A stretch of 11,748 bases of DNA, from the NCBI GenBank assembly GCA_045531635.1, contig JAZSEI010000114.1, positions 1-11,748 on the forward strand, read 5' to 3'. This stretch comes from Acutalibacteraceae bacterium. GTDB taxonomy: Bacteria; Bacillota; Clostridia; Oscillospirales; Acutalibacteraceae. Within the stretch, counting starts at the first letter, position 1. Each line of letters opens with the position of its first letter. This document shows positions 113 through 9,818 of this stretch, in pieces. The notes beneath the pieces were generated by a model. That model was not told the DNA's origin, did not search any database, and was given only the letters and a program-made list of their open reading frames with translations. The position numbers and the translations under genes are program-made.

Positions 113-142
113 GCGTGAAAATGACATTTAGTGATATAATAA
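113..142 (+). promoter_or_regulatory. Candidate sigma-A promoter: TTGCGT (113-118), 18-nt spacer, TATAAT (137-142), upstream of the first WYL gene
   Basis: Hexamers read directly from the sequence. The position fits a transcription start about 60 nt upstream of the ATG at 213. Confidence 0.35.
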
Positions 143-212: not shown

Positions 213-1460
213 ATGTCATCATATAGCGAGCTTATAAAAAATTTTGATAAAATACGCAGTTATATGCGTGAATTCTATGTATATGGTTTTAAGAGTCGTG
301 AGGAATATACCAAAAAAAGCGCTCGTTCTTATGATGACGAGCGTAGAAGAATAGAAAGCTGGCTTGGTGATTATATGAGCTTTGTACGCACTCCAGAAGG
401 TAAAAATTTATTTATTTCCATTGATAGCCGTGTTTCACAGCATAACCCATTCTATAAAGCACTAAAGGCCAAAAGCTTTACTGATAAAGATATAACTCTG
501 CACTTTATTTTGTTTGATATACTTCATTCGTCAGAAGTGGTTATGTCATTGGCTGAAATACTAGAGCAAATAGATGAATATTTAGCTGTTTTTGAAGCAC
601 CAATGATGTTTGATGAATCTACTGTAAGAAAAAAGCTAAAAGAATATATATCACACAGTATAATTGAAGTTCAAAAAGTTGGTAGAAAAATGTTGTATCG
701 ACGTTCCGATAAAATTGCTTTGCCAGATATAACTGATGTGCTGAATTTCTATTCAGAGATTGCCCCTTGTGGTGTTATTGGTTCTTTTTTACTTGATAAG
801 CAAGAAAAGCAAAGCGATAGTTTTAGTTTCAAGCACCACTACATAACCTCTGCAATAGATAGTGATGTAACAGCAACACTGTTTAAAGCAATGCACGAAA
901 AAAGTATTATTAGCGTTGATAACCTGAGCCGTCGTGAAGTTGAGCCACAAAAAAACAGAATCATACCTTTGCAGATTTTTATCAGTGTTCAGAATGGAAG
1001 ACAGCACTTACTAGCTTATCAGCCAGATTTTAATGTAATTAAATCATTTAGAATTGATTATCTATCTAATGTGAAAATCGAATCACCAACACCCCGTTTT
1101 GATGAATTAAGAGCAGAGCTTGATAAGATGAAGTCGAAAATGTGGGGTGTTTCAACAAAGAGTCAACACTTTAACGCATTTGAGCATGTTGAGTTTACTG
1201 TTAAGATTGCTGATGACGAAGAGCATATTGTCCAAAGACTTGAACGAGAGAAGCGGGTAGGGCAAATAGAAAAGCTTGATGATAACACATATCGTTTTAT
1301 GGCAGATGTTTATGACATAAGCGAAATGATTCCTTGGATACGAACTTTTATTTGCAGAATAACCGAGCTTACTTTTTCTAATAAAGAACTTGAAAAGAGA
1401 TTTAAAAAGGATATAAAAGATATGTATCGTATTTACGGAATTGAAGAGGTGGTGGTATGA
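213..1460 (+). CDS. WYL-domain transcriptional regulator with four parts: an N-terminal extra domain (~90 aa), a DeoR/HTH_11-like winged HTH (~aa 95-170), a WYL domain and a C-terminal WCX-like extension
   Basis: The ORF track gives a GTG at 204. I prefer the ATG at 213, which follows the RBS GAGGTGA (201-207) by 5 nt. HTH-like segment: LAEILEQIDEYL...FDESTVRKKLKEY...IEVQKVGRKMLYRR. WYL-like segment: RIIPLQIFISVQNGRQHLLAYQPDFNVIKSFRIDYLSNVKI, with HLLAY where WYL normally sits and FRIDYL in place of the usual FRldRI motif. WCX-like tail: MIPWIRTFICRITELTF. The stop overlaps the next start (ATGA at 1457-1460). Confidence 0.7.
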   Translation: MSSYSELIKNFDKIRSYMREFYVYGFKSREEYTKKSARSYDDERRRIESWLGDYMSFVRTPEGKNLFISIDSRVSQHNPFYKALKAKSFTDKDITLHFILFDILHSSEVVMSLAEILEQIDEYLAVFEAPMMFDESTVRKKLKEYISHSIIEVQKVGRKMLYRRSDKIALPDITDVLNFYSEIAPCGVIGSFLLDKQEKQSDSFSFKHHYITSAIDSDVTATLFKAMHEKSIISVDNLSRREVEPQKNRIIPLQIFISVQNGRQHLLAYQPDFNVIKSFRIDYLSNVKIESPTPRFDELRAELDKMKSKMWGVSTKSQHFNAFEHVEFTVKIADDEEHIVQRLEREKRVGQIEKLDDNTYRFMADVYDISEMIPWIRTFICRITELTFSNKELEKRFKKDIKDMYRIYGIEEVVV

Positions 1461-2368
1461 TATTTAACGAAATTTACTCTGCCTACTATAATACAGTAGC
1501 CAAAATCATTACAAGTGTCTTAAACGATAATACTGACGAGAAGACTATAAATAGAATAGTTAGTGAAAATGCTTTTGCCGAAAGTGTGCTAAGTATTTTG
1601 CCTTCGCTCAAAAGTGAAAAATGGCAGCTTTTAAAAGCAGATATGACTACTCCTATTCAACATATACCTACAATGCCGTTAACACTAACTCAAAAACAAT
1701 GGTTAAAGGCAATTTCGTTAGACCCACGAATAAAATTGTTTGATATAGATTTTTCATCTCTTGACGGTATTGAACCACTGTTCACATCAGATGATTATTG
1801 CATCTATGACAGATATAATGATGGAGACCCATACGAGGATGAAGAGTATATCAAAAGATTTCAGATTATTCTGTCAGCTTTAAAGGAGAAACAATCACTT
1901 AAAATACAGATGATTAATCGTAAGGGGCATAGCTCTTCAGTTTTAGTTGTTCCACAAAGACTAGAATATTCAGAAAAGGATGATAAATTTCGCATTATAA
2001 GCACAGGATGTCGTTACGGAGCAACTATAAATCTGGCTCGTATCACATCGTGTGAAAAATGCTGTACTTCTAAAATTGTCACTCATAGTGCTTCTCTATC
2101 CTCAAAAGAAGTGTTAACACTCCGTATATTCGATGAACGTAATACTCTAGAACGATGTTTGTTGCATTTTGCACATTTTGAAAAACAAGTAGAACGAATT
2201 GATGAAAATATGTATCTGGTCTATCTTAAATACAATAAAGCAGATGAAACTGAAATTGTTATTCGTGTTTTGAGCTTTGGACCTATGGTTGAAGTGATAG
2301 AGCCTAATCATTTCAGGAAGTTAATAATAGAGCGTTTAAGAAAACAAAAAAGCTGTGAACTTAATTGA
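1457..2368 (+). CDS. Second WYL-domain protein (WYL plus WCX-like C-terminus). Its N-terminal region has no obvious canonical HTH. It is a paralogous partner of the upstream regulator, in a PafB/PafC-like tandem arrangement
   Basis: Start is coupled to the upstream stop (ATGA), with RBS GAGGTGG just upstream. WYL-like segment: SSVLVVPQRLEYSEKDDKFRIISTGCRYGATINLARITSCE. C-terminus FGPMVEVIEPNHFRKLIIERLRKQ matches the familiar fG..veVleP..lr tail of WYL/WCX proteins. Confidence 0.7.
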   Translation: MIFNEIYSAYYNTVAKIITSVLNDNTDEKTINRIVSENAFAESVLSILPSLKSEKWQLLKADMTTPIQHIPTMPLTLTQKQWLKAISLDPRIKLFDIDFSSLDGIEPLFTSDDYCIYDRYNDGDPYEDEEYIKRFQIILSALKEKQSLKIQMINRKGHSSSVLVVPQRLEYSEKDDKFRIISTGCRYGATINLARITSCEKCCTSKIVTHSASLSSKEVLTLRIFDERNTLERCLLHFAHFEKQVERIDENMYLVYLKYNKADETEIVIRVLSFGPMVEVIEPNHFRKLIIERLRKQKSCELN

Positions 2369-2384
2369 GTTCGCAGCTTTTTTT
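2346..2384 (+). terminator. Rho-independent terminator ending the WYL gene pair
   Basis: AGCTGTGAAC (2351-2360) pairs with GTTCGCAGCT (2369-2378): a 10-bp stem with one G-U, an 8-nt loop that contains the TGA stop, an A-run before and a T6 run after (2379-2384). Confidence 0.6.
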
Positions 2385-2396
2385 CCGTGTTATATA
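2369..2396 (+). promoter_or_regulatory. Candidate extended -10 promoter (TGtTATATA, 2388-2396) with a weak -35 (TTCGCA, 2369-2374) for the leader/SPFH/rtcB transcript
   Basis: The TGn-TATATA motif lies immediately after the upstream terminator. The -35 is poor, so confidence is low. Confidence 0.25.
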
Positions 2397-2399
2397 AGG

Positions 2400-2840
2400 A
2401 ATATATTGGTAAAATATCCTTGCAAGGTTACTTCAAGCGTGTGTATAAAATTAACCTACACTGCGGTGCACAAGGCTATGCCAAAGTGTATGCCAGAAGA
2501 ATCACTTGCTCCCTGGCAATAGGATATATGCCAGTTATGTTTTTTGATATCTAACGAGGCTCAAAATCTCAAAAGAAATGTGGGTTAGAAAACCACAACC
2601 ATTGTAATGTGCAAAAGCACACCAAACACTATCACAAAAAAGCAATTACTCTGCTGATGAATAGAAATTACTTTTCGTTAGCAATGTGCGAGTTGCCTTG
2701 CTTGAGAATGGATACCGTGTTTCAAACATATAAGCCAAAAGCTTTCTTTCCGCTTATATGTGCGATCACTTAAATTTTCAACCGTAATTGGTGCATGAGT
2801 AATTGCTGATGCAATTTAACCTTTAGGAGGATTATATATT
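2400..2840 (+). other. Long (~440 nt) non-coding leader or candidate structured RNA upstream of the SPFH-rtcB genes. It contains the palindrome CCTTGCAAGG and several direct-repeat motifs
   Basis: No ORF with an RBS is present. GC content is visibly higher than in the other intergenic regions of the window. Palindrome at 2418-2427. TATGCCA occurs three times (2477, 2488, 2527). ATGTGCGA occurs twice (2684, 2758), with AATGTGCAA at 2605. Confidence 0.3.
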
Positions 2841-3944
2841 ATGAAGAAAATTATTATTAACGAAAAACAAAGAGGACTACTATTTAAAAACGGAAAATAC
2901 ATAAAAATGCTTACTGCTGGCAAATACTATGCTTGTGGTGGAAAAGAAATAGAGGTATTAGATATGACTGAATTTCCAGTTACATCTGGTAACTGCGAAT
3001 TAGAAACTCTTCTAAAAGACAAAGCTGTTGCAGATTCTGTAGTTGTAGCTGACGTAGGTGACCAGGAAATAGCACTTCATTTTATTAATGGCAAATTTAA
3101 AGATGTTTTGCTTCATGGTAAATATGCTTTTTGGTCAATTATTGATAAGCACGAATTTAAGATTGTTGATAAATCTCAGACAGAGGTATCAGATGACGTG
3201 CCAGAATATATTTTTTCAAGAATGGCACCTCTTTACTATACTAAGATTGAGGTTTTAGAGTATCAGAAGGTACTGCTATATTTCAATCAGAAGTTTGTAA
3301 AGATTCTTGATGCAGGTACATATTATTTTTGGAGAAACGGTGTTAAGATTGATACAAGATGTGTTGATACCCGACTAACACAGATGAATATTACTGGACA
3401 GGAGATATTAACTCAGGATAAGGTTTCTTTACGCATTAATTTTGTATGCAATTACCGTGTAACAGATTATGTGAAGATACATACCGAGATTGATAACTTC
3501 ACCGAGCAAATGCATGTGGCTGCACAGCTTGCTTTGCGTGAGTATGTAGGAAAATATAAGCTTGACGAGATTTTGGAAAACAAAGTAGAAATGTCTGAGT
3601 TTGTATTTGCTAAGTTAAAAGCGAAAGAAAAGGAGCTTTTTATTGAGATTACAGACGCTGGTGTAAAGGACATTATTTTACCAGGAGAAATTCGTGAAAT
3701 AATGAACACTGTACTGGTTGCAGAAAAACGTGCACAGGCAAATGTAATTACTCGTCGAGAAGAGGTTGCCTCTACCAGATCATTGCTGAATACAGCAAAG
3801 CTGATGGACGAGAACAAAACACTCTACAAGCTCAAGGAGCTTGAGTATATTGAGCGTATCTGTGAGAATGTTGGTAATATCAACCTTAACGGGAATACAG
3901 ATGTACTAACACAGCTTACAGGTATACTCAAGGGTAACACATAA
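2841..3944 (+). CDS. SPFH/band-7 (stomatin/prohibitin/flotillin/HflKC) domain protein, 367 aa. It has no N-terminal TM helix. About 190 aa of N-terminal sequence is made of three tandem ~60-aa repeats that resemble the first beta-hairpin segment of the SPFH fold
   Basis: Strong RBS AGGAGG 8-10 nt upstream of the ATG at 2841. SPFH core: QEILTQDKVSLRINFVCNYRVTDYVK...DAGVKDIILPGEIREIMNTVLVAEKRAQANVITRREEVAS. The three repeats are RGLLFKNGKYIKMLTAGKYYA, IALHFINGKFKDVLLHGKYAFW and VLLYFNQKFVKILDAGTYYFW. Confidence 0.8.
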   Translation: MKKIIINEKQRGLLFKNGKYIKMLTAGKYYACGGKEIEVLDMTEFPVTSGNCELETLLKDKAVADSVVVADVGDQEIALHFINGKFKDVLLHGKYAFWSIIDKHEFKIVDKSQTEVSDDVPEYIFSRMAPLYYTKIEVLEYQKVLLYFNQKFVKILDAGTYYFWRNGVKIDTRCVDTRLTQMNITGQEILTQDKVSLRINFVCNYRVTDYVKIHTEIDNFTEQMHVAAQLALREYVGKYKLDEILENKVEMSEFVFAKLKAKEKELFIEITDAGVKDIILPGEIREIMNTVLVAEKRAQANVITRREEVASTRSLLNTAKLMDENKTLYKLKELEYIERICENVGNINLNGNTDVLTQLTGILKGNT

Positions 3945-4012
3945 ACAATGTCATCACCATTTGATAACTGTTAAAGATTTAAACGGTGTTGTTACAAAGA
4001 AAGGAAATTTTT

Positions 4013-5221
4013 ATGATAGAGATAAAAGGTAAGTTTAATACTGCTTTATGCTATACAAACGAACTTGAGCCTACTGCTTATGCTCAAATTGAAGCAGTGT
4101 GCAACGAAAAGGCTTTCGAAAATTCTAAAATCCGTATAATGCCTGATGTTCACGCTGGTAAGGGCTGTACAATTGGTACCACAATGACTATTGTTGATAA
4201 GGTTGTACCCAATATGGTTGGTGTTGATATTGGTTGTGGAATGTATACTGTAAGCTTAGGTAAGATTGATATTGACCTTGCAAAGTTTGATGAGGTTGCA
4301 CATTCTATTCCTTGTGGCAGAAATGTTTGGGAGGGCAGACAAGAACGCTTTGATTTAACACAGCTTCGTTGTTATAGAAATCTTAAGGATACTAGAAGAC
4401 TAGAGAGAAGCCTTGGCACCTTAGGAGGAGGTAACCACTTTATCGAAATTGATACTGATGAAAATGGAAATAAGTATTTAATAATCCACTCTGGCAGTCG
4501 TAATCTTGGTACACAGGTTGCTGAGTTTTATCAAACCATTGCAGTTGATTTGGATCTAGGCAAAGAGGAGTATTTTAAAAAGCGTGACGAAATCATTAGC
4601 ACATATAAGCAACAGGGTAGAAGAAGTGAAATTCAATCCACCTTAAAGCAACTAGCGAAGGAATGGGAAGAGAAGTCCCCGACAATGCCTAAAGAGCTTT
4701 GTTATCTTTTCGGTTCATTTATGGACGACTATCTACACGATATAAATATCTGTCAGCAATTTGCAAAGCGTAACCGTGAGAAAATGGCTGAGATTTTGCT
4801 ACTAAAGACAGGTATTACAGGTTTTGAAGCATTTCAGACTATCCACAATTATATTGATGTAGATGAAATGATTCTGCGTAAGGGCTCTGTTTCTGCTAAG
4901 AAAGGAGAAAAGCTGTTAATTCCGATTAATATGCGTGATGGTAGTCTTATCTGTATTGGTAAGGGTAATTCAGAGTGGAACTACTCTGCACCTCACGGAG
5001 CAGGTCGCTTAATGTCTCGTTCCGTTGCATTTGAAAAGCTTACTATGGAAGAGTACCAAAAGCAAATGGCAGGTATTTATACTACTTGTGTAAATACTTC
5101 TACTCTAGATGAGTCACCTATGGCATATAAAAATATGGATGATATTATAGCAAATATTGAACCTACTGCCGAAATTATTGCACATATCAAGCCAATTTAT
5201 AATTTTAAGGCTGCAGAATAG
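4013..5221 (+). CDS. rtcB: RtcB-family RNA 3'-phosphate/2',3'-cyclic-phosphate ligase (402 aa)
   Basis: Diagnostic RtcB motifs are present: MPDVHAGKG, GVDIGCGMY (Asp/Cys metal ligands), GGGNHFIEID, HSGSRNLG and APHGAGR (the His that is guanylylated). I prefer the ATG at 4013, with RBS AAAGGAAA 7 nt upstream, over the GTG at 3986 in the ORF track. There is no terminator between the SPFH gene and rtcB, so they are probably co-transcribed. Confidence 0.9.
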   Translation: MIEIKGKFNTALCYTNELEPTAYAQIEAVCNEKAFENSKIRIMPDVHAGKGCTIGTTMTIVDKVVPNMVGVDIGCGMYTVSLGKIDIDLAKFDEVAHSIPCGRNVWEGRQERFDLTQLRCYRNLKDTRRLERSLGTLGGGNHFIEIDTDENGNKYLIIHSGSRNLGTQVAEFYQTIAVDLDLGKEEYFKKRDEIISTYKQQGRRSEIQSTLKQLAKEWEEKSPTMPKELCYLFGSFMDDYLHDINICQQFAKRNREKMAEILLLKTGITGFEAFQTIHNYIDVDEMILRKGSVSAKKGEKLLIPINMRDGSLICIGKGNSEWNYSAPHGAGRLMSRSVAFEKLTMEEYQKQMAGIYTTCVNTSTLDESPMAYKNMDDIIANIEPTAEIIAHIKPIYNFKAAE

Positions 5222-6152: not shown

Positions 6153-6593
6153 ATGCAAATAGAAATCAGCATTGACGCAAAATATAAGATTCCCAAAATC
6201 ATAATAAAAACAGACAGAATAACAGATGAGGTCAATGAGGTTATGAAAAAGCTTTCAGACGACTCACCAAAGGTTATTACTGGATTTAAGGATGATTGCG
6301 TAGAGGTTCTTGAGCCTGAGCGAATTTACCGTTTTTATTCAAGCCAAGGCAAGGTTTTTGCTGTGACAGATAATGGGGAGTATACAGTAAGAACTCGACT
6401 TTACGAGATTGAGGAGCAGATGTGCTTACCAAAATTTGTAAGAGTGTCAAATTCAGAAATAATTAATCTGAAAAAGGTCAAAAATTTTGACCTGAGCTTA
6501 GCAGGCACAATCTGTGTGCAGTTTTCTGACGGCTCTGACACTTATGTGTCAAGAAGATATGTATCAAAAATCAAAAAAATATTAGGTATATGA
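6153..6593 (+). CDS. Stand-alone LytTR-family DNA-binding regulator (146 aa, no receiver domain)
   Basis: LytTR-like pattern: IIIKTDRITDEVNEVMKKL...IYRFYSSQGKVFAVTDNGEYTVRTRLYEIEEQM..FVRVSNSEIINLKKVKNFD..VQFSDGSDTYVSRRY. RBS AAGGGGGA 7-8 nt upstream. Confidence 0.75.
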   Translation: MQIEISIDAKYKIPKIIIKTDRITDEVNEVMKKLSDDSPKVITGFKDDCVEVLEPERIYRFYSSQGKVFAVTDNGEYTVRTRLYEIEEQMCLPKFVRVSNSEIINLKKVKNFDLSLAGTICVQFSDGSDTYVSRRYVSKIKKILGI

Positions 6594-6602
6594 GGTGTTT
6601 TT

Positions 6603-7058
6603 ATGTTTAAAGAAATTTTAAAAAGAAGTGTATTAAGTGCGTTAGGTGGTTTGTTTATTACTCAGCTTGTAGGTGTTATTGTTTCACTATGTATAGCAGA
6701 TGGCAATTATTATCCTGTTGTGCCTTCACTTACAGAGAGTATAGGTAGCGAAATCGGTGCAGTTATATTCCAGACAGTTTGCTCATTGTTGTATGGTGCT
6801 GTATTTGGTGGTATGTCAATAATATGGGAGCTGGATAATTGGAGTATTTTAAAACAAACAGTAGTTCACTTTTTAGTGGTTTCTTTTGTAAGCTTTCCTA
6901 TTGCATATGTTACCGAGTGGATGGAGCATTCTATAGTTGGAGGAATTACTTACTTTGCTGTATTTGCAGTAATTTACGCATTCATATGGTTTAGTCAATA
7001 CATAAGTGTAAGAAAGCGTATAAATGAAGTAAATAAAAAGCTTAACCAAACAGCTTGA
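6603..7058 (+). CDS. Small 4-TM membrane protein (151 aa), DUF3021-like. Probably the membrane inhibitor partner of the LytTR regulator, analogous to HdrM/BrsM
   Basis: Four hydrophobic helices are visible. RBS GAGGTG overlaps the upstream stop, indicating translational coupling. A LytTR gene followed by a small polytopic membrane protein is the recurrent streptococcal LRS architecture. Confidence 0.6.
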   Translation: MFKEILKRSVLSALGGLFITQLVGVIVSLCIADGNYYPVVPSLTESIGSEIGAVIFQTVCSLLYGAVFGGMSIIWELDNWSILKQTVVHFLVVSFVSFPIAYVTEWMEHSIVGGITYFAVFAVIYAFIWFSQYISVRKRINEVNKKLNQTA

Positions 7059-7456: not shown

Positions 7457-7603
7457 TTAAGAAAAGGTGTAAAATTCACCATGTATTTTTTGCTGTATCA
7501 TAATAAATAAAAAAGATTGCCCTTAAAGATTATCGTTCGATTTGAGAAGCAACTTATAAAATAAAGATTTGTATAAATACTAAAAAACAGAGAGGTGTAT
7601 CAA

Positions 7604-9211
7604 ATGAAAATTCAATTTATAGGAGCAGTTCACGAGGTAACAGGAAGCTGTACTTTGCTCGAAGTAAATGAGAAAATTTATTTAGTAGATTGTGGTATGG
7701 AACAAGGAATAGATGTTTTTCAGAATATTGCTTTACCTGTTCCAGCAAATTCTATTGAAGCTGTGTTTTTAACTCATGCACATATCGACCATTCAGGAAT
7801 GTTACCAAAGCTGTATAAGGATGGATTTAAAGGCTCGATATATGCTACAGATGTAACTTGTGATTTGTGCAATATTATGCTGAGAGATTCTGCTTATATT
7901 CAAGAATCAGAGGCAAAATGGCAATCCAAGAAAGAACAGCGAGCAGGTAGAGAGTCTGTGGAGCCAACATATAATATGCAAGACGCAATCGGAGCTATCT
8001 CGTGTTTTCGTAGATGTAATTACGGTGAATTGGTTTCTGCAGGTGAAGGTGTAGAAATCAGGTTTACAGATGTTGGACATCTTTTAGGCTCTGCCTGTAT
8101 TGAAATTTGGCTTTCAGAGGGTGAAATAGAGAAGAAGATCGTATTTAGTGGAGATGTAGGAAACATAAATCAGCCTATTATTCGTGACCCACAGTTTGTT
8201 GAAGAAACTGATTATCTTGTTATTGAGTCCACATACGGAAATCGTCTGCATAATGAGAATAAAAGTAATGTAGTAAACGAGCTAGCAGAATATATTCAAC
8301 AGGCATTAGATAGAGGAGGTAATGTGATAATCCCTTCATTTGCAGTGGGTAGAACTCAAGAGCTGTTGTATACTATCCGTGAAATAAAGCAAAAAGGATT
8401 AGTAACAGGGCACGAACATTTTCCTGTATATGTAGACAGTCCTCTTGCAGCAGAATCAACAGCTATATTTATGCAGTGTAATCCAATTTGCTTTGATGAA
8501 GAAACTATTGCGTTAATAAAGGAAGGGATAAATCCAATTTGGTTTGATGATATATATATGACAGTTACCTCTGAGGAATCTAAACAGATTAATTTGGATA
8601 AAAAAGCTAAGGTTATTATTTCTGCAAGTGGAATGTGTGAGGCAGGAAGAATTCGCCATCATCTAAAGCATAATCTTTGGCAGGAAAATAATATTATTCT
8701 TTTTGTAGGTTATCAAGCAGAAGGCTCATTAGGCAGAAAACTGATAGAGGGAGCAAAAACAGTAAAGCTTTTTGGAGAAGAAATTGCTGTAAATGCACAA
8801 ATTTGCACACTACACGGTTCTAGTGGTCATGCAGACTGTGATGGACTTATTAACTGGGTTTTAGCATTTAAAGAAAAGCCAGAATTGATATTTGTAAATC
8901 ACGGAGATGATAGTGCCTGTGAAGACTTCAAAAAATTATTGATTGAAAAAGGTTATATGGCAGATGCTCCATATAGTGGTACAGAGTATGACCTTGCTAC
9001 AGGAAAAATGACAGTTTATACAGAAGGCAAATTAATTGACCGAGTACAGCTGTTTAAGGGTAATAAACGTGCTAATATGCTTTATAATGATCTTGTATCA
9101 GAAGCAGAAAGACTACTTGCATTAGCTAAAGAACGTAAGGGTAGAGCTAATAAAGATAATGCTAAGCTCACTTCTCAAATTCGAGAGCTAATTGAAAAAT
9201 GGAAAGATTAA
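7604..9211 (+). CDS. Beta-CASP family MBL-fold ribonuclease (RNase J/CPSF73-like RNA-metabolising metallo-beta-lactamase) with a ~100-aa basic/coiled C-terminal tail
   Basis: MBL motifs: LVDCGM, HAHIDHSG, VGHLLGSA, FSGDVG. Beta-CASP motifs: ESTYG...and GSSGHAD. I prefer the ATG at 7604, with RBS AGAGAGGTG 6 nt upstream, over the GTG at 7595. Confidence 0.8.
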   Translation: MKIQFIGAVHEVTGSCTLLEVNEKIYLVDCGMEQGIDVFQNIALPVPANSIEAVFLTHAHIDHSGMLPKLYKDGFKGSIYATDVTCDLCNIMLRDSAYIQESEAKWQSKKEQRAGRESVEPTYNMQDAIGAISCFRRCNYGELVSAGEGVEIRFTDVGHLLGSACIEIWLSEGEIEKKIVFSGDVGNINQPIIRDPQFVEETDYLVIESTYGNRLHNENKSNVVNELAEYIQQALDRGGNVIIPSFAVGRTQELLYTIREIKQKGLVTGHEHFPVYVDSPLAAESTAIFMQCNPICFDEETIALIKEGINPIWFDDIYMTVTSEESKQINLDKKAKVIISASGMCEAGRIRHHLKHNLWQENNIILFVGYQAEGSLGRKLIEGAKTVKLFGEEIAVNAQICTLHGSSGHADCDGLINWVLAFKEKPELIFVNHGDDSACEDFKKLLIEKGYMADAPYSGTEYDLATGKMTVYTEGKLIDRVQLFKGNKRANMLYNDLVSEAERLLALAKERKGRANKDNAKLTSQIRELIEKWKD

Positions 9212-9236
9212 ATTGAAAATTCAGGAGAATGAAAGT

Positions 9237-9818
9237 ATGAGAATATGTGTATATGGTGCAGCGTCGCCAACTATTGACGATATCTACAAAGAAAAGGTAG
9301 AACATTTGGGTAAAGTAATGGTACAGCGTGGTCATTCACTTGTATTTGGTGGTGGCGGCAAAGGCTTGATGGGAGCCGTTGCGAATGGTGTTCATTCGGC
9401 TAAAGGTCATATTATTGGCGTAATACCACAATTTTTCTTAGATGAAAAAATAGAAGCAGTATGTGAGTTTTGCGATGAAATGATACTTACCGAAACAATG
9501 CGTGAACGAAAACAAATTATGGAGGATAATGCAGACGCTTTTATTATAGTACCAGGTGGTATTGGAACATACGAAGAGTTTTTTGAAATACTAACATTAA
9601 AGCAACTGTGTCGTCATAATAAACCAATTGTTATTTATAATATCGAAGGATATTATAATGAAATTGAAACAGCAATGAATGAAGCAATAAGAAAGAATTT
9701 TATAAAAGATAGTTGCGTAGAACTGTATGAAGTTACTGATGAGCTGGACAAATTATTTGAATGTGTTGAAAATACTCAGCAAAAAATAAGAACAGTAAAA
9801 GAGCTTAAAGATGGCTGA
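9237..9818 (+). CDS. LOG-family (TIGR00730-type Rossmann fold) nucleotide 5'-monophosphate nucleosidase / cytokinin-riboside phosphoribohydrolase-like protein (193 aa)
   Basis: GGGGKGLMGAVANG and VPGGIGTYEEFFE are the LOG signatures (the PGGxGTxxE motif). I prefer the ATG at 9237, with RBS AGGAGA 8 nt upstream, over the ORF-track start at 9192. It lies 25 bp after the RNase stop and is probably co-transcribed. Confidence 0.8.
   Translation: MRICVYGAASPTIDDIYKEKVEHLGKVMVQRGHSLVFGGGGKGLMGAVANGVHSAKGHIIGVIPQFFLDEKIEAVCEFCDEMILTETMRERKQIMEDNADAFIIVPGGIGTYEEFFEILTLKQLCRHNKPIVIYNIEGYYNEIETAMNEAIRKNFIKDSCVELYEVTDELDKLFECVENTQQKIRTVKELKDG

Follow-up and report, generated by a model that had tools for sequence, protein, structure and literature searches.

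A translationally coupled pair of WYL-WCX proteins as the probable regulator of an adjacent RtcB RNA-repair operon in Clostridia

The window analysed here is the whole 11,748-nucleotide stretch of contig JAZSEI010000114.1 (assembly GCA_045531635.1) from an Acutalibacteraceae bacterium, with a GC content of 28-38%. It contains two tandem open reading frames on one strand, ORF1 (415 aa) and ORF2 (303 aa), that encode WYL-domain proteins and are followed by genes for a Band-7/SPFH protein and the RNA ligase RtcB. The pair is best explained as a heteromeric WYL activator, probably one that controls the adjacent RtcB RNA-repair operon.

213..1460, plus strand: ORF1, the WYL subunit bearing a helix-turn-helix (HTH), with a ribosome-binding site GAGGTG at 201-206.
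1457..2368, plus strand: ORF2, the WYL subunit with no recognisable HTH, overlapping the stop of ORF1 at its start.

The ORF1 stop and the ORF2 start share the sequence ATGA at 1457-1460. Homologs number more than 7000 for ORF1 and more than 5000 for ORF2, and public records name them at most "WYL domain-containing protein". The family is large, comprising 1449 clusters (50% identity, E<=1e-3), and a genome set with one genome per species contains 440 stretches with confirmed relatives. Eighty of these stretches were taken as loci for synteny and alignment. All 80 are Clostridia metagenome-assembled genomes (MAGs), from Oscillospiraceae, Acutalibacteraceae, Ruminococcus, and others. ORF2 directly follows ORF1 in all 74 loci that are not truncated after ORF1. 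The 4-nt ATGA/GTGA overlap is present in 65 of the 74, and five more have an overlap of 11-14 nt. Since homologs run into the thousands and the overlap is conserved, the pairing is not a matter of chance.

ORF1 and ORF2 are also found fused, in 10 of the top 150 family representatives (50% identity). The fusion proteins are 685-855 aa long and place ORF1 at the N terminus and ORF2 at the C terminus, as in the gene order. The conserved coupling together with these natural fusions constitutes strong genetic evidence for one heteromeric protein, whose two parts would interact physically. The two proteins would be produced jointly, by way of translational coupling.

213..506, plus strand: ORF1 N-terminal domain (N-domain), aa 1-98; family-defining, with no match in Pfam or PDB searches.
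507..767, plus strand: ORF1 ArsR/SmtB-like winged helix-turn-helix (wHTH), aa ~99-185, from a family-profile match.
861..1082, plus strand: ORF1 WYL domain, aa ~217-290, from Pfam, PADLOC, Foldseek, and the family profile.
1179..1427, plus strand: ORF1 WCX domain, aa ~323-405, from a sub-cutoff Pfam match, PADLOC, and AlphaFold2 (AF2)/Foldseek.
1457..1831, plus strand: ORF2 N-terminal region (N-region), aa 1-125; highly conserved and aromatic-rich, with no detectable HTH.
1841..2071, plus strand: ORF2 WYL domain, aa ~129-205, from PADLOC, AF2, and Foldseek.
2105..2344, plus strand: ORF2 WCX domain, aa ~217-296, from Pfam, with AF2 and Foldseek in agreement.

Direct comparison of ORF1 with ORF2 reveals no similarity by BLASTP (E 0.33) or by hhalign on shallow alignments (65-85% identity). 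Diverse profiles were built for ORF1 from 58 representatives at 32-67% identity, and for ORF2 from locus translations and the C-terminal halves of fusion proteins. With these profiles, hhalign aligns ORF1 112-403 with ORF2 13-296 (E 1.1e-5, probability 82%). Judged by this match, ORF1 and ORF2 are distant paralogs that have WYL and WCX domains in common. A single PADLOC WYL model spans both domains in each protein (ORF1 aa 211-404, 4e-13; ORF2 aa 127-296, 8e-8). PDB searches by phmmer and shallow profiles returned nothing for either protein. Foldseek comparison of their AF2 models with the PDB retrieves every WYL regulator of solved structure, namely DriD, PafBC, BrxR, CapW, and WYL1 (E 5e-9 to 1e-3), with DriD as the best match for both. 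The models were built on shallow alignments of close homologs and are good only in the C-terminal halves.

The N-domain is the best-conserved part of the ORF1 family, and its nearly invariant residues persist at 32-67% identity. It is rich in conserved Arg/Lys and contains the basic stretch RSYDxERRR. The AF2 model of ORF1 has a mean predicted local distance difference test (pLDDT) score of 54, with residues 1-217 below 50, and the H-H-H-beta-beta pattern of the N-domain belongs to this low-confidence part. In hhalign comparisons, the N-domain gives E 0.022 with the ORF1 wHTH, which is suggestive only, and E 0.14 with the ORF2 N-region. A second winged helix is a possible identity for the N-domain. 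The wHTH that follows is matched by the diverse ORF1 profile to the winged helices of SmtB, ArsR, and CzrA at aa 100-183 (E 0.003-0.05), and a few family members match Pfam PaaX, HTH_12, MarR_2, or Penicillinase_R.

The WYL domain of ORF1 scores 21.9 bits against the Pfam cutoff of 21.8 (aa 219-288). The diverse ORF1 profile matches the WYL domain of mycobacterial PafB (E 3.7e-5), to which the sequence similarity with PafB is limited. The WYL triad is Q264-H265-L266 (QHL), for a family consensus of x-Y-L. Among representatives at 32-67% identity, G262, R263, and R280 never vary, and in PafB they line up with RGRWYL...FRLSRI. The WCX domain scores 16.7 bits, under the Pfam cutoff; PADLOC coverage extends through it to aa 404, its pLDDT is 70-90, and its Foldseek match is the DriD C-domain. 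Both ORF1 and ORF2 carry the WYL domain (an Sm-like beta-barrel with a helix before it) and the WCX domain that, behind an HTH, characterise class A WYL transcription factors (HTH-WYL-WCX; PMC6789036).

ORF2 is modelled with a mean pLDDT of 70.6. Pfam, NCBIfam, PDB profiles, and hhalign detect no HTH in its N-region. In the hhalign alignment this region lies opposite the ORF1 wHTH and linker; taken alone it has no significant similarity to the ORF1 wHTH (hhalign E 0.2). Pfam WYL does not match ORF2 itself and does match the ORF2-like half of some fused homologs. The YSEKDDKFR loop and R195 of ORF2 are invariant, as are K177 and R179. Conserved basic residues occupy the WYL ligand loops of both ORF1 and ORF2 and are candidates for structural equivalence. 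The ORF2 WCX domain scores 24.3 bits against a Pfam cutoff of 23.9.

These results bear out much of the initial annotation, made by a model from the sequence alone, which had described tandem, translationally coupled paralogs with WYL and WCX in common, a clear HTH in one subunit only, and a divergent WYL motif in ORF1. It had also given ORF1 an extra N-terminal region followed by an HTH_11-like wHTH. Both elements are present, but the winged helix is ArsR-like and not specifically HTH_11. For ORF2 it had described about 150 aa with no HTH; none is detectable, but the region before the WYL domain is closer to 125 aa.

2841..3944, plus strand: SPFH/Band-7 protein, 367 aa; Pfam Band_7 4e-31 and conserved synteny.
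3986..5221, plus strand: RtcB RNA ligase; Pfam RtcB 2.6e-57 and conserved synteny.

The only elements conserved with the pair are ORF1, ORF2, the spacer, and SPFH/RtcB or, in its place, tRNA-like genes, DUF2828, and RtcB with or without RlaP. The repair genes lie downstream of the pair on the same strand and take three forms. In the first, found in 38 loci, Band-7/SPFH is followed by RtcB where the contig reaches; 27 of these loci have a spacer of 440-625 bp before SPFH, and the window spacer is of the same type. The second form extends over ~2-2.7 kb. It contains tRNA-like genes whose anticodons are unusual, a DUF2828/DUF7788 protein, RtcB, and often RlaP. The DUF2828/DUF7788 protein is one we take to be TROVE/vWA-like. 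In the third form, represented by two loci (L057 and L064), RtcB comes straight after the promoter. The window has the Band_7 and RtcB genes adjacent on the same strand, and the SPFH/Band-7 protein is predicted to be the scaffold of an RNA-repair system. Across the window and 200 related Clostridia MAG loci, the neighbours of the pair are RtcB, SPFH, and DUF2828. This synteny is the decisive context that the initial annotation missed, and it points to control by RNA damage rather than DNA damage.

2370..2389, plus strand: near-invariant 20-mer TTCGCAGCTTTTTTTCCGTG, with the core TTCGCA-N3-TTTTTTCCGTG; candidate operator.
2407..2415, plus strand: extended -10 element TGGTAAAAT of the RNA-repair operon promoter, 20 nt after the 20-mer.
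2346..2383, plus strand: 17-bp hairpin and U-run, terminator of the ORF1-ORF2 transcript (dG -22 kcal/mol, z -5.8).
132..140, plus strand: candidate extended -10 element TGATATAAT of the ORF1-ORF2 promoter, read from the sequence.

The 20-mer TTCGCAGCTTTTTTTCCGTG occurs exactly in 72 of 73 genome loci, whose proteins are 52-83% identical, and a motif search finds a single copy in the window. It is composed of the hairpin 3' arm, the T-run, and the following CCGTG, and spans about -52 to -33 of the repair promoter. The offset from motif to -10 is fixed across loci, with TATAAT or TAAAAT at that position. No -35 consensus is present at the repair promoter, and a sigma-70 scan gives no -35/-10 pair there. 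In some loci the motif lies 30 to 500 bp away from ORF2; the -10 spacing is then kept, and the hairpin 5' arm travels along or gives way to a different pairing partner.

A metagenome scan seeded on the 20-mer alone yielded at least 120 loci. Among the matches listed, ORF2 lies upstream in 79 of the 93 loci with at least 1 kb of upstream sequence, and RtcB, SPFH, or DUF2828 lies downstream in 66 of the 76 whose downstream sequence reaches at least 1.5 kb. Several loci contain the motif and the repair genes with no WYL pair within 3-8 kb upstream, implying action in trans. Second copies of the motif precede second transcription units. These copies have no hairpin arm. Their variation is limited to positions 7-9, and this outlines the bipartite core TTCGCA-N3-TTTTTTCCGTG.

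The motif also precedes ORF1 in 17 of 138 loci, 65-70 nt upstream in 16 of them and at -132 in one. This is an autoregulatory signature that ties the motif to the regulator. The subclade with such a copy is about 59% identical to the window ORF1. The copies (in L116, L103, L166, L180, and 13 others) are of the variant forms TTCGCAATCTTTTTTCCGTG or TTCGCAGGTTTTTTTCCGTG and have their own -10. Upstream of ORF1 in the window and its close relatives, no conserved element and no 20-mer are found. The ORF1-upstream regions are not conserved among loci, and many carry TGnTATAAT. Expression of ORF1-ORF2 in this genome is presumably constitutive, because the motif is absent before ORF1.

Two other interpretations of the 20-mer were discarded. 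A symmetric operator, in which the motif would form a palindrome with the 5' arm, is at odds with the secondary and autoregulatory copies that have no arm and with the loci in which other sequence pairs with TTCGC. A phage origin was rejected, as the motif is found in only 1 of 2.9 million viral contigs. The C-terminal KSCEL of ORF2 is nearly invariant, and its codons (2346-2368) form the 5' arm of the hairpin. The constraint appears to act at the nucleotide level; the ORF2 tail differs where the hairpin sits further downstream (for example FDCKIK in L059).

The promoters of PafBC and DriD have a normal -10 and no -35, and the spacing between the -10 and the activator site is constant (PMC8635444, PMC13004042). 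At PafBC promoters, only the HTH of PafB reads DNA, and that of PafC contacts sigma (PMC8635444, PMC13004042). The repair promoter here is likewise without a -35 element, which argues for activation. ORF1 and ORF2 would be the two subunits of one regulator dedicated to the RtcB operon, and would associate through their WCX domains by analogy with PafBC. ORF1 would contact DNA through its ArsR-like winged helix, possibly with help from the conserved N-domain, and read an asymmetric bipartite site. ORF2 would contribute a second, different WYL sensor, and its N-region may contact RNA polymerase or ORF1. Placed at TTCGCA-N3-TTTTTTCCGTG, 20 bp upstream of the -10, the complex would recruit RNA polymerase in its housekeeping form, much as PafBC and DriD do.

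The complex is predicted to be gated by a ligand, a signal of nucleic-acid damage bound by the WYL domains. Because the regulon is one of RNA repair, the likeliest signal would be RNA fragments or ends produced by ribotoxins, with single-stranded DNA (ssDNA) as the alternative. The Aravind group has predicted that CARF and WYL transcription factors detect RNA with a cyclic phosphate, and that RNA repair is under the control of some of these factors (PMC9503650). The induced output would comprise the structured leader RNA, the Band-7 scaffold, and the RtcB ligase. Damaged RNA is the least secure step of the model, since all solved ligands of the matching WYL regulators are ssDNA.

Several points weigh against this activator reading. 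The characterised ligands of the matching WYL transcription-factor structures (DriD, PafBC, and CapW) are ssDNA and never RNA. One Lactiplantibacillus WYL factor senses cyclic di-GMP. The ORF1 wHTH is assigned from profile matches of E 0.003-0.05, in a part of the structure model where pLDDT is below 50. Fourteen of the 93 listed metagenome loci with the motif are without the pair in the available upstream sequence. The 20-mer is unusually strict for an operator, given the divergence of the proteins. Part of it is the 3' arm and U-tract of the terminator, so some of the constraint may be on RNA. Finally, the defence-linked BrxR and CapW are repressors, and the sign of regulation could be the opposite of that proposed (PMC11888443, PMC9503650).

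Tentatively, the heteromeric activator may be the first WYL activator to sense RNA damage and not ssDNA. Its two different WYL pockets would bind RNA ends or fragments left by ribotoxins, its target would be an RtcB/Band-7 repair ribonucleoprotein, and the bipartite element would be read by the N-domain and the winged helix together. The ligands in this extension are possibly 2',3'-cyclic-phosphate or 5'-OH termini, or fragments of the tRNA-like leader of the operon.

It is unlikely that the pair is instead a repressor like BrxR or CapW, sitting on the motif beside the -35 position until a ligand on the WYL domains releases it. BrxR and CapW, both described as repressors, are among the structural matches (PMC11888443; PMC9503650). 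The motif abuts the -35 position, and its copies upstream of ORF1 fit negative autoregulation equally well. However, a good extended -10 with no -35 is the signature of the activator-dependent PafBC and DriD promoters (PMC8635444, PMC13004042), whereas the sites of repressors usually overlap a promoter that is otherwise competent.

The overlap of the motif with a stable RNA hairpin raises an explanation that we consider improbable, in which the pair is an RNA-binding accessory of the repair machinery, comparable to WYL1 for Cas13d. It would bind the hairpin and U-tract, or the leader or tRNA-like RNA, and would serve anti-termination, the presentation of RNA, or scaffolding instead of being a DNA-binding transcription factor. 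RNA binding is typical of the folds of WYL (Sm-like) and WCX (ferredoxin-like) (PMC6789036), and the structural matches include WYL1 (6oaw). A structured RNA is encoded next door, and ORF2 is without an HTH. Yet ORF1 has an ArsR-like wHTH, and motif copies with no hairpin keep the exact spacing to the -10, which is a property of a promoter at the DNA level. In the minimal loci L057 and L064, moreover, rtcB comes straight after the motif and promoter, with no non-coding RNA.

A true DNA-damage regulator of the PafBC type, sensing ssDNA and controlling DNA-repair genes elsewhere while only incidentally next to rtcB, would account for the tandem coupled paralogs and their fusions, the WYL match to PafB (E 3.7e-5), and the proven ssDNA ligand of the closest structures, but it is very improbable given the RtcB-cassette synteny across hundreds of species with variable flanking genes, a window with no DNA-repair or proteasome genes and with the PafBC promoter motif at chance level, the absence from ORF2 of the HTH that PafC has, and a 20-mer that is tied in the sampled loci to repair operons and to the pair itself.

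The activator reading nevertheless retains a clear likeness to PafBC of Actinobacteria (PDB 6SJ9, 9FND). Both consist of two tandem WYL-WCX paralogs with natural fusions, and both have a -10 with no -35 and a fixed upstream element. One HTH functionally reads DNA in PafBC, as would be the case here, and the WYL domains are the sensors. PafB and PafC each carry a wHTH (PMC6789036), but none can be detected in ORF2, and the 98-aa N-domain of ORF1 is an addition. The operator also differs in sequence and in position, lying at -52 to -33 here and at -26 in PafBC. PafBC controls a proteasome/DNA-damage regulon and is accompanied by pafA/Pup-proteasome genes in Actinobacteria; the pair here precedes an RtcB operon in another phylum. 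No proteasome/pafA or DNA-repair genes are found among the window proteins. The PafBC target motif, tGTCgg-N10-tA-N3-T (PMC8635444), has 2 one-mismatch matches in the window against 1.6 expected, neither of them at a promoter. The description of the pair as PafBC-like therefore holds for architecture and promoter design but not for membership, because no HTH is detectable in ORF2, the pair occurs in another genomic setting and another phylum, and the PafBC motif does not exceed chance. On domain content and context, the pair is best placed in the WYL-WCX regulator superfamily outside PafBC, with PafBC/DriD-like promoter logic and a role like that of RtcR. HTH-WYL-WCX proteins are common in Firmicutes (PMC6789036).

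DriD of Caulobacter (PDB 8TP8, 9PFQ) has the architecture wHTH-linker-WYL-WCX, as ORF1 probably does, and activates promoters with no -35 from a site at a fixed distance. It differs in being a homodimer of symmetric architecture, with an ssDNA ligand and DNA-damage gene targets. BrxR and CapW are HTH-WYL-WCX factors located, as here, directly upstream of the conflict system that they control. Unlike the proposed complex, they are homodimeric repressors with symmetric operators and serve defence systems, not RNA repair.

The closest functional parallel is RtcR, the regulator of rtcBA in E. coli and Salmonella. Like the proposed complex, it is a dedicated regulator adjacent to an RtcB operon and has a nucleic-acid-sensing domain. 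RtcR, in contrast, is one protein, a CARF-AAA+-HTH sigma-54 enhancer-binding factor that shares neither sequence nor fold with the pair, and the likeness is functional only. Pfam and NCBIfam find no CARF or AAA+ sigma-54 activator domain in ORF1 or ORF2. To our knowledge, the regulation of bacterial RNA repair is understood for proteobacterial RtcR only. By analogy, the pair may be the clostridial counterpart in function of this CARF/sigma-54 activator. A response of RtcR to damaged tRNA has been reported (PMC7790460).

RtcB repair systems with Band-7 and b7a-tRNA, or with Ro-like (Rsr) proteins and Y-RNAs, are attributed to Burroughs and Aravind (2016) in bioRxiv 10.1101/312249. The window resembles the Band-7/b7a-tRNA system in its pairing of RtcB with Band-7, a cassette that in relatives includes tRNA-like RNA, and sister loci have DUF2828, tRNA-like genes, and RlaP. 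It differs in that the tRNA-like module of the window is degenerate and partly deleted, and in having an extra covarying element of ~165 nt.

In the searchable literature, no description was found of an architecture in which two genes, at times fused, always occur together and one partner has no HTH, of the ORF1 N-domain and the near-invariant operator, or of RNA-repair regulation in Firmicutes. No WYL pair tied to Band-7/DUF2828-RtcB cassettes was found there either, the scope of that literature excluding Burroughs & Aravind 2016. RtcB cassettes are common among gut-commensal Firmicutes. The locus is a compact system made up of two small proteins, an almost constant 20-bp element, a -35-independent promoter, and a defined output (RtcB, a Band-7 protein, and a structured RNA). 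It could show whether WYL domains read RNA damage, what part an HTH-less WYL paralog has in activation, and what the role of Band-7-associated RNAs is.

2422..2840, plus strand: transcribed leader/non-coding RNA, ~420 nt, delineated by alignments with relatives.
2642..2806, plus strand: multi-helix structured RNA, ~165 nt, directly upstream of the SPFH ribosome-binding site.

The leader holds a conserved 5' hairpin at 2461-2494 that is intact in the window. The spacers of relatives (e.g. L009, L026, and L040) contain a tRNA-like module in the 5' half of the leader, with a canonical T-arm GCGGGTTCGAATCCCGC, a hairpin after it, and a CGCCA-like 3' end. In the window, the T-arm-like hairpin (2580-2596) is degenerate, and about 65 nt are deleted relative to these relatives. 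A tRNA-like gene is predicted by ARAGORN in the corresponding spacers of L017, L026, and L040, and no tRNA is predicted in the window. Rfam gives chance-level matches only (E<=1 for the whole window, E<=10 for the spacer).

The element at 2642-2806 is composed of seven helices and includes the invariant stretches GGAUACCG, CCAAAAG, and UUUCCGC. RNAalifold predicts 39 base pairs, 32 of them with compensatory changes. The fraction of cells that are paired is 93.7%, compared with 76.1% in shuffled alignments. The covariation score is 0.58, against 0.25 for shuffles (0 of 500 reach it) and 0.08-0.13 for slid controls. The element has no match in Rfam and may represent an undescribed RNA family that acts as a riboswitch-like leader or partners the Band-7 protein.

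The loci with DUF2828 are exemplified by L003 (10600-14700) and number about 20 more of similar kind; their cassette lies behind the same WYL pair and motif. The gene order in L003-type loci is tRNA-like genes, DUF2828/DUF7788, RtcB, and the RlaP nucleotidyltransferase. Two to four tRNA-like genes are present, with anticodons aat, tcg, cga, ata, and aaa, some of them above the Rfam tRNA threshold. L051 and L155 contain both cassette types, with one copy of the motif before each.

The RtcB reading frame of the window is listed from GTG 3986. Its true start is probably ATG 4013 (MIEIKGKF...), since homologs such as that in L003 begin there, which makes the listed N terminus 9 residues too long.

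The window genes that flank the module encode a nitroreductase, a LytTR/DUF3021 pair, a beta-CASP nuclease, a LOG-like protein, and an M50 peptidase. None of them is conserved near the pair in relatives. Within 7595-9818, the gene of a 538-aa beta-CASP/metallo-beta-lactamase RNase that has an RMMBL domain shares 20 nt with the gene of a 208-aa LOG/SLOG-family protein. This combination of an RNA nuclease with a nucleotide-processing protein is not syntenic with the WYL module elsewhere. At 6153-7058, the gene of a small LytTR DNA-binding protein (146 aa) is separated by 9 nt from the next gene, which encodes a DUF3021 membrane protein (151 aa); the two form a typical two-gene LytTR/membrane regulatory pair that is unrelated to the WYL module.

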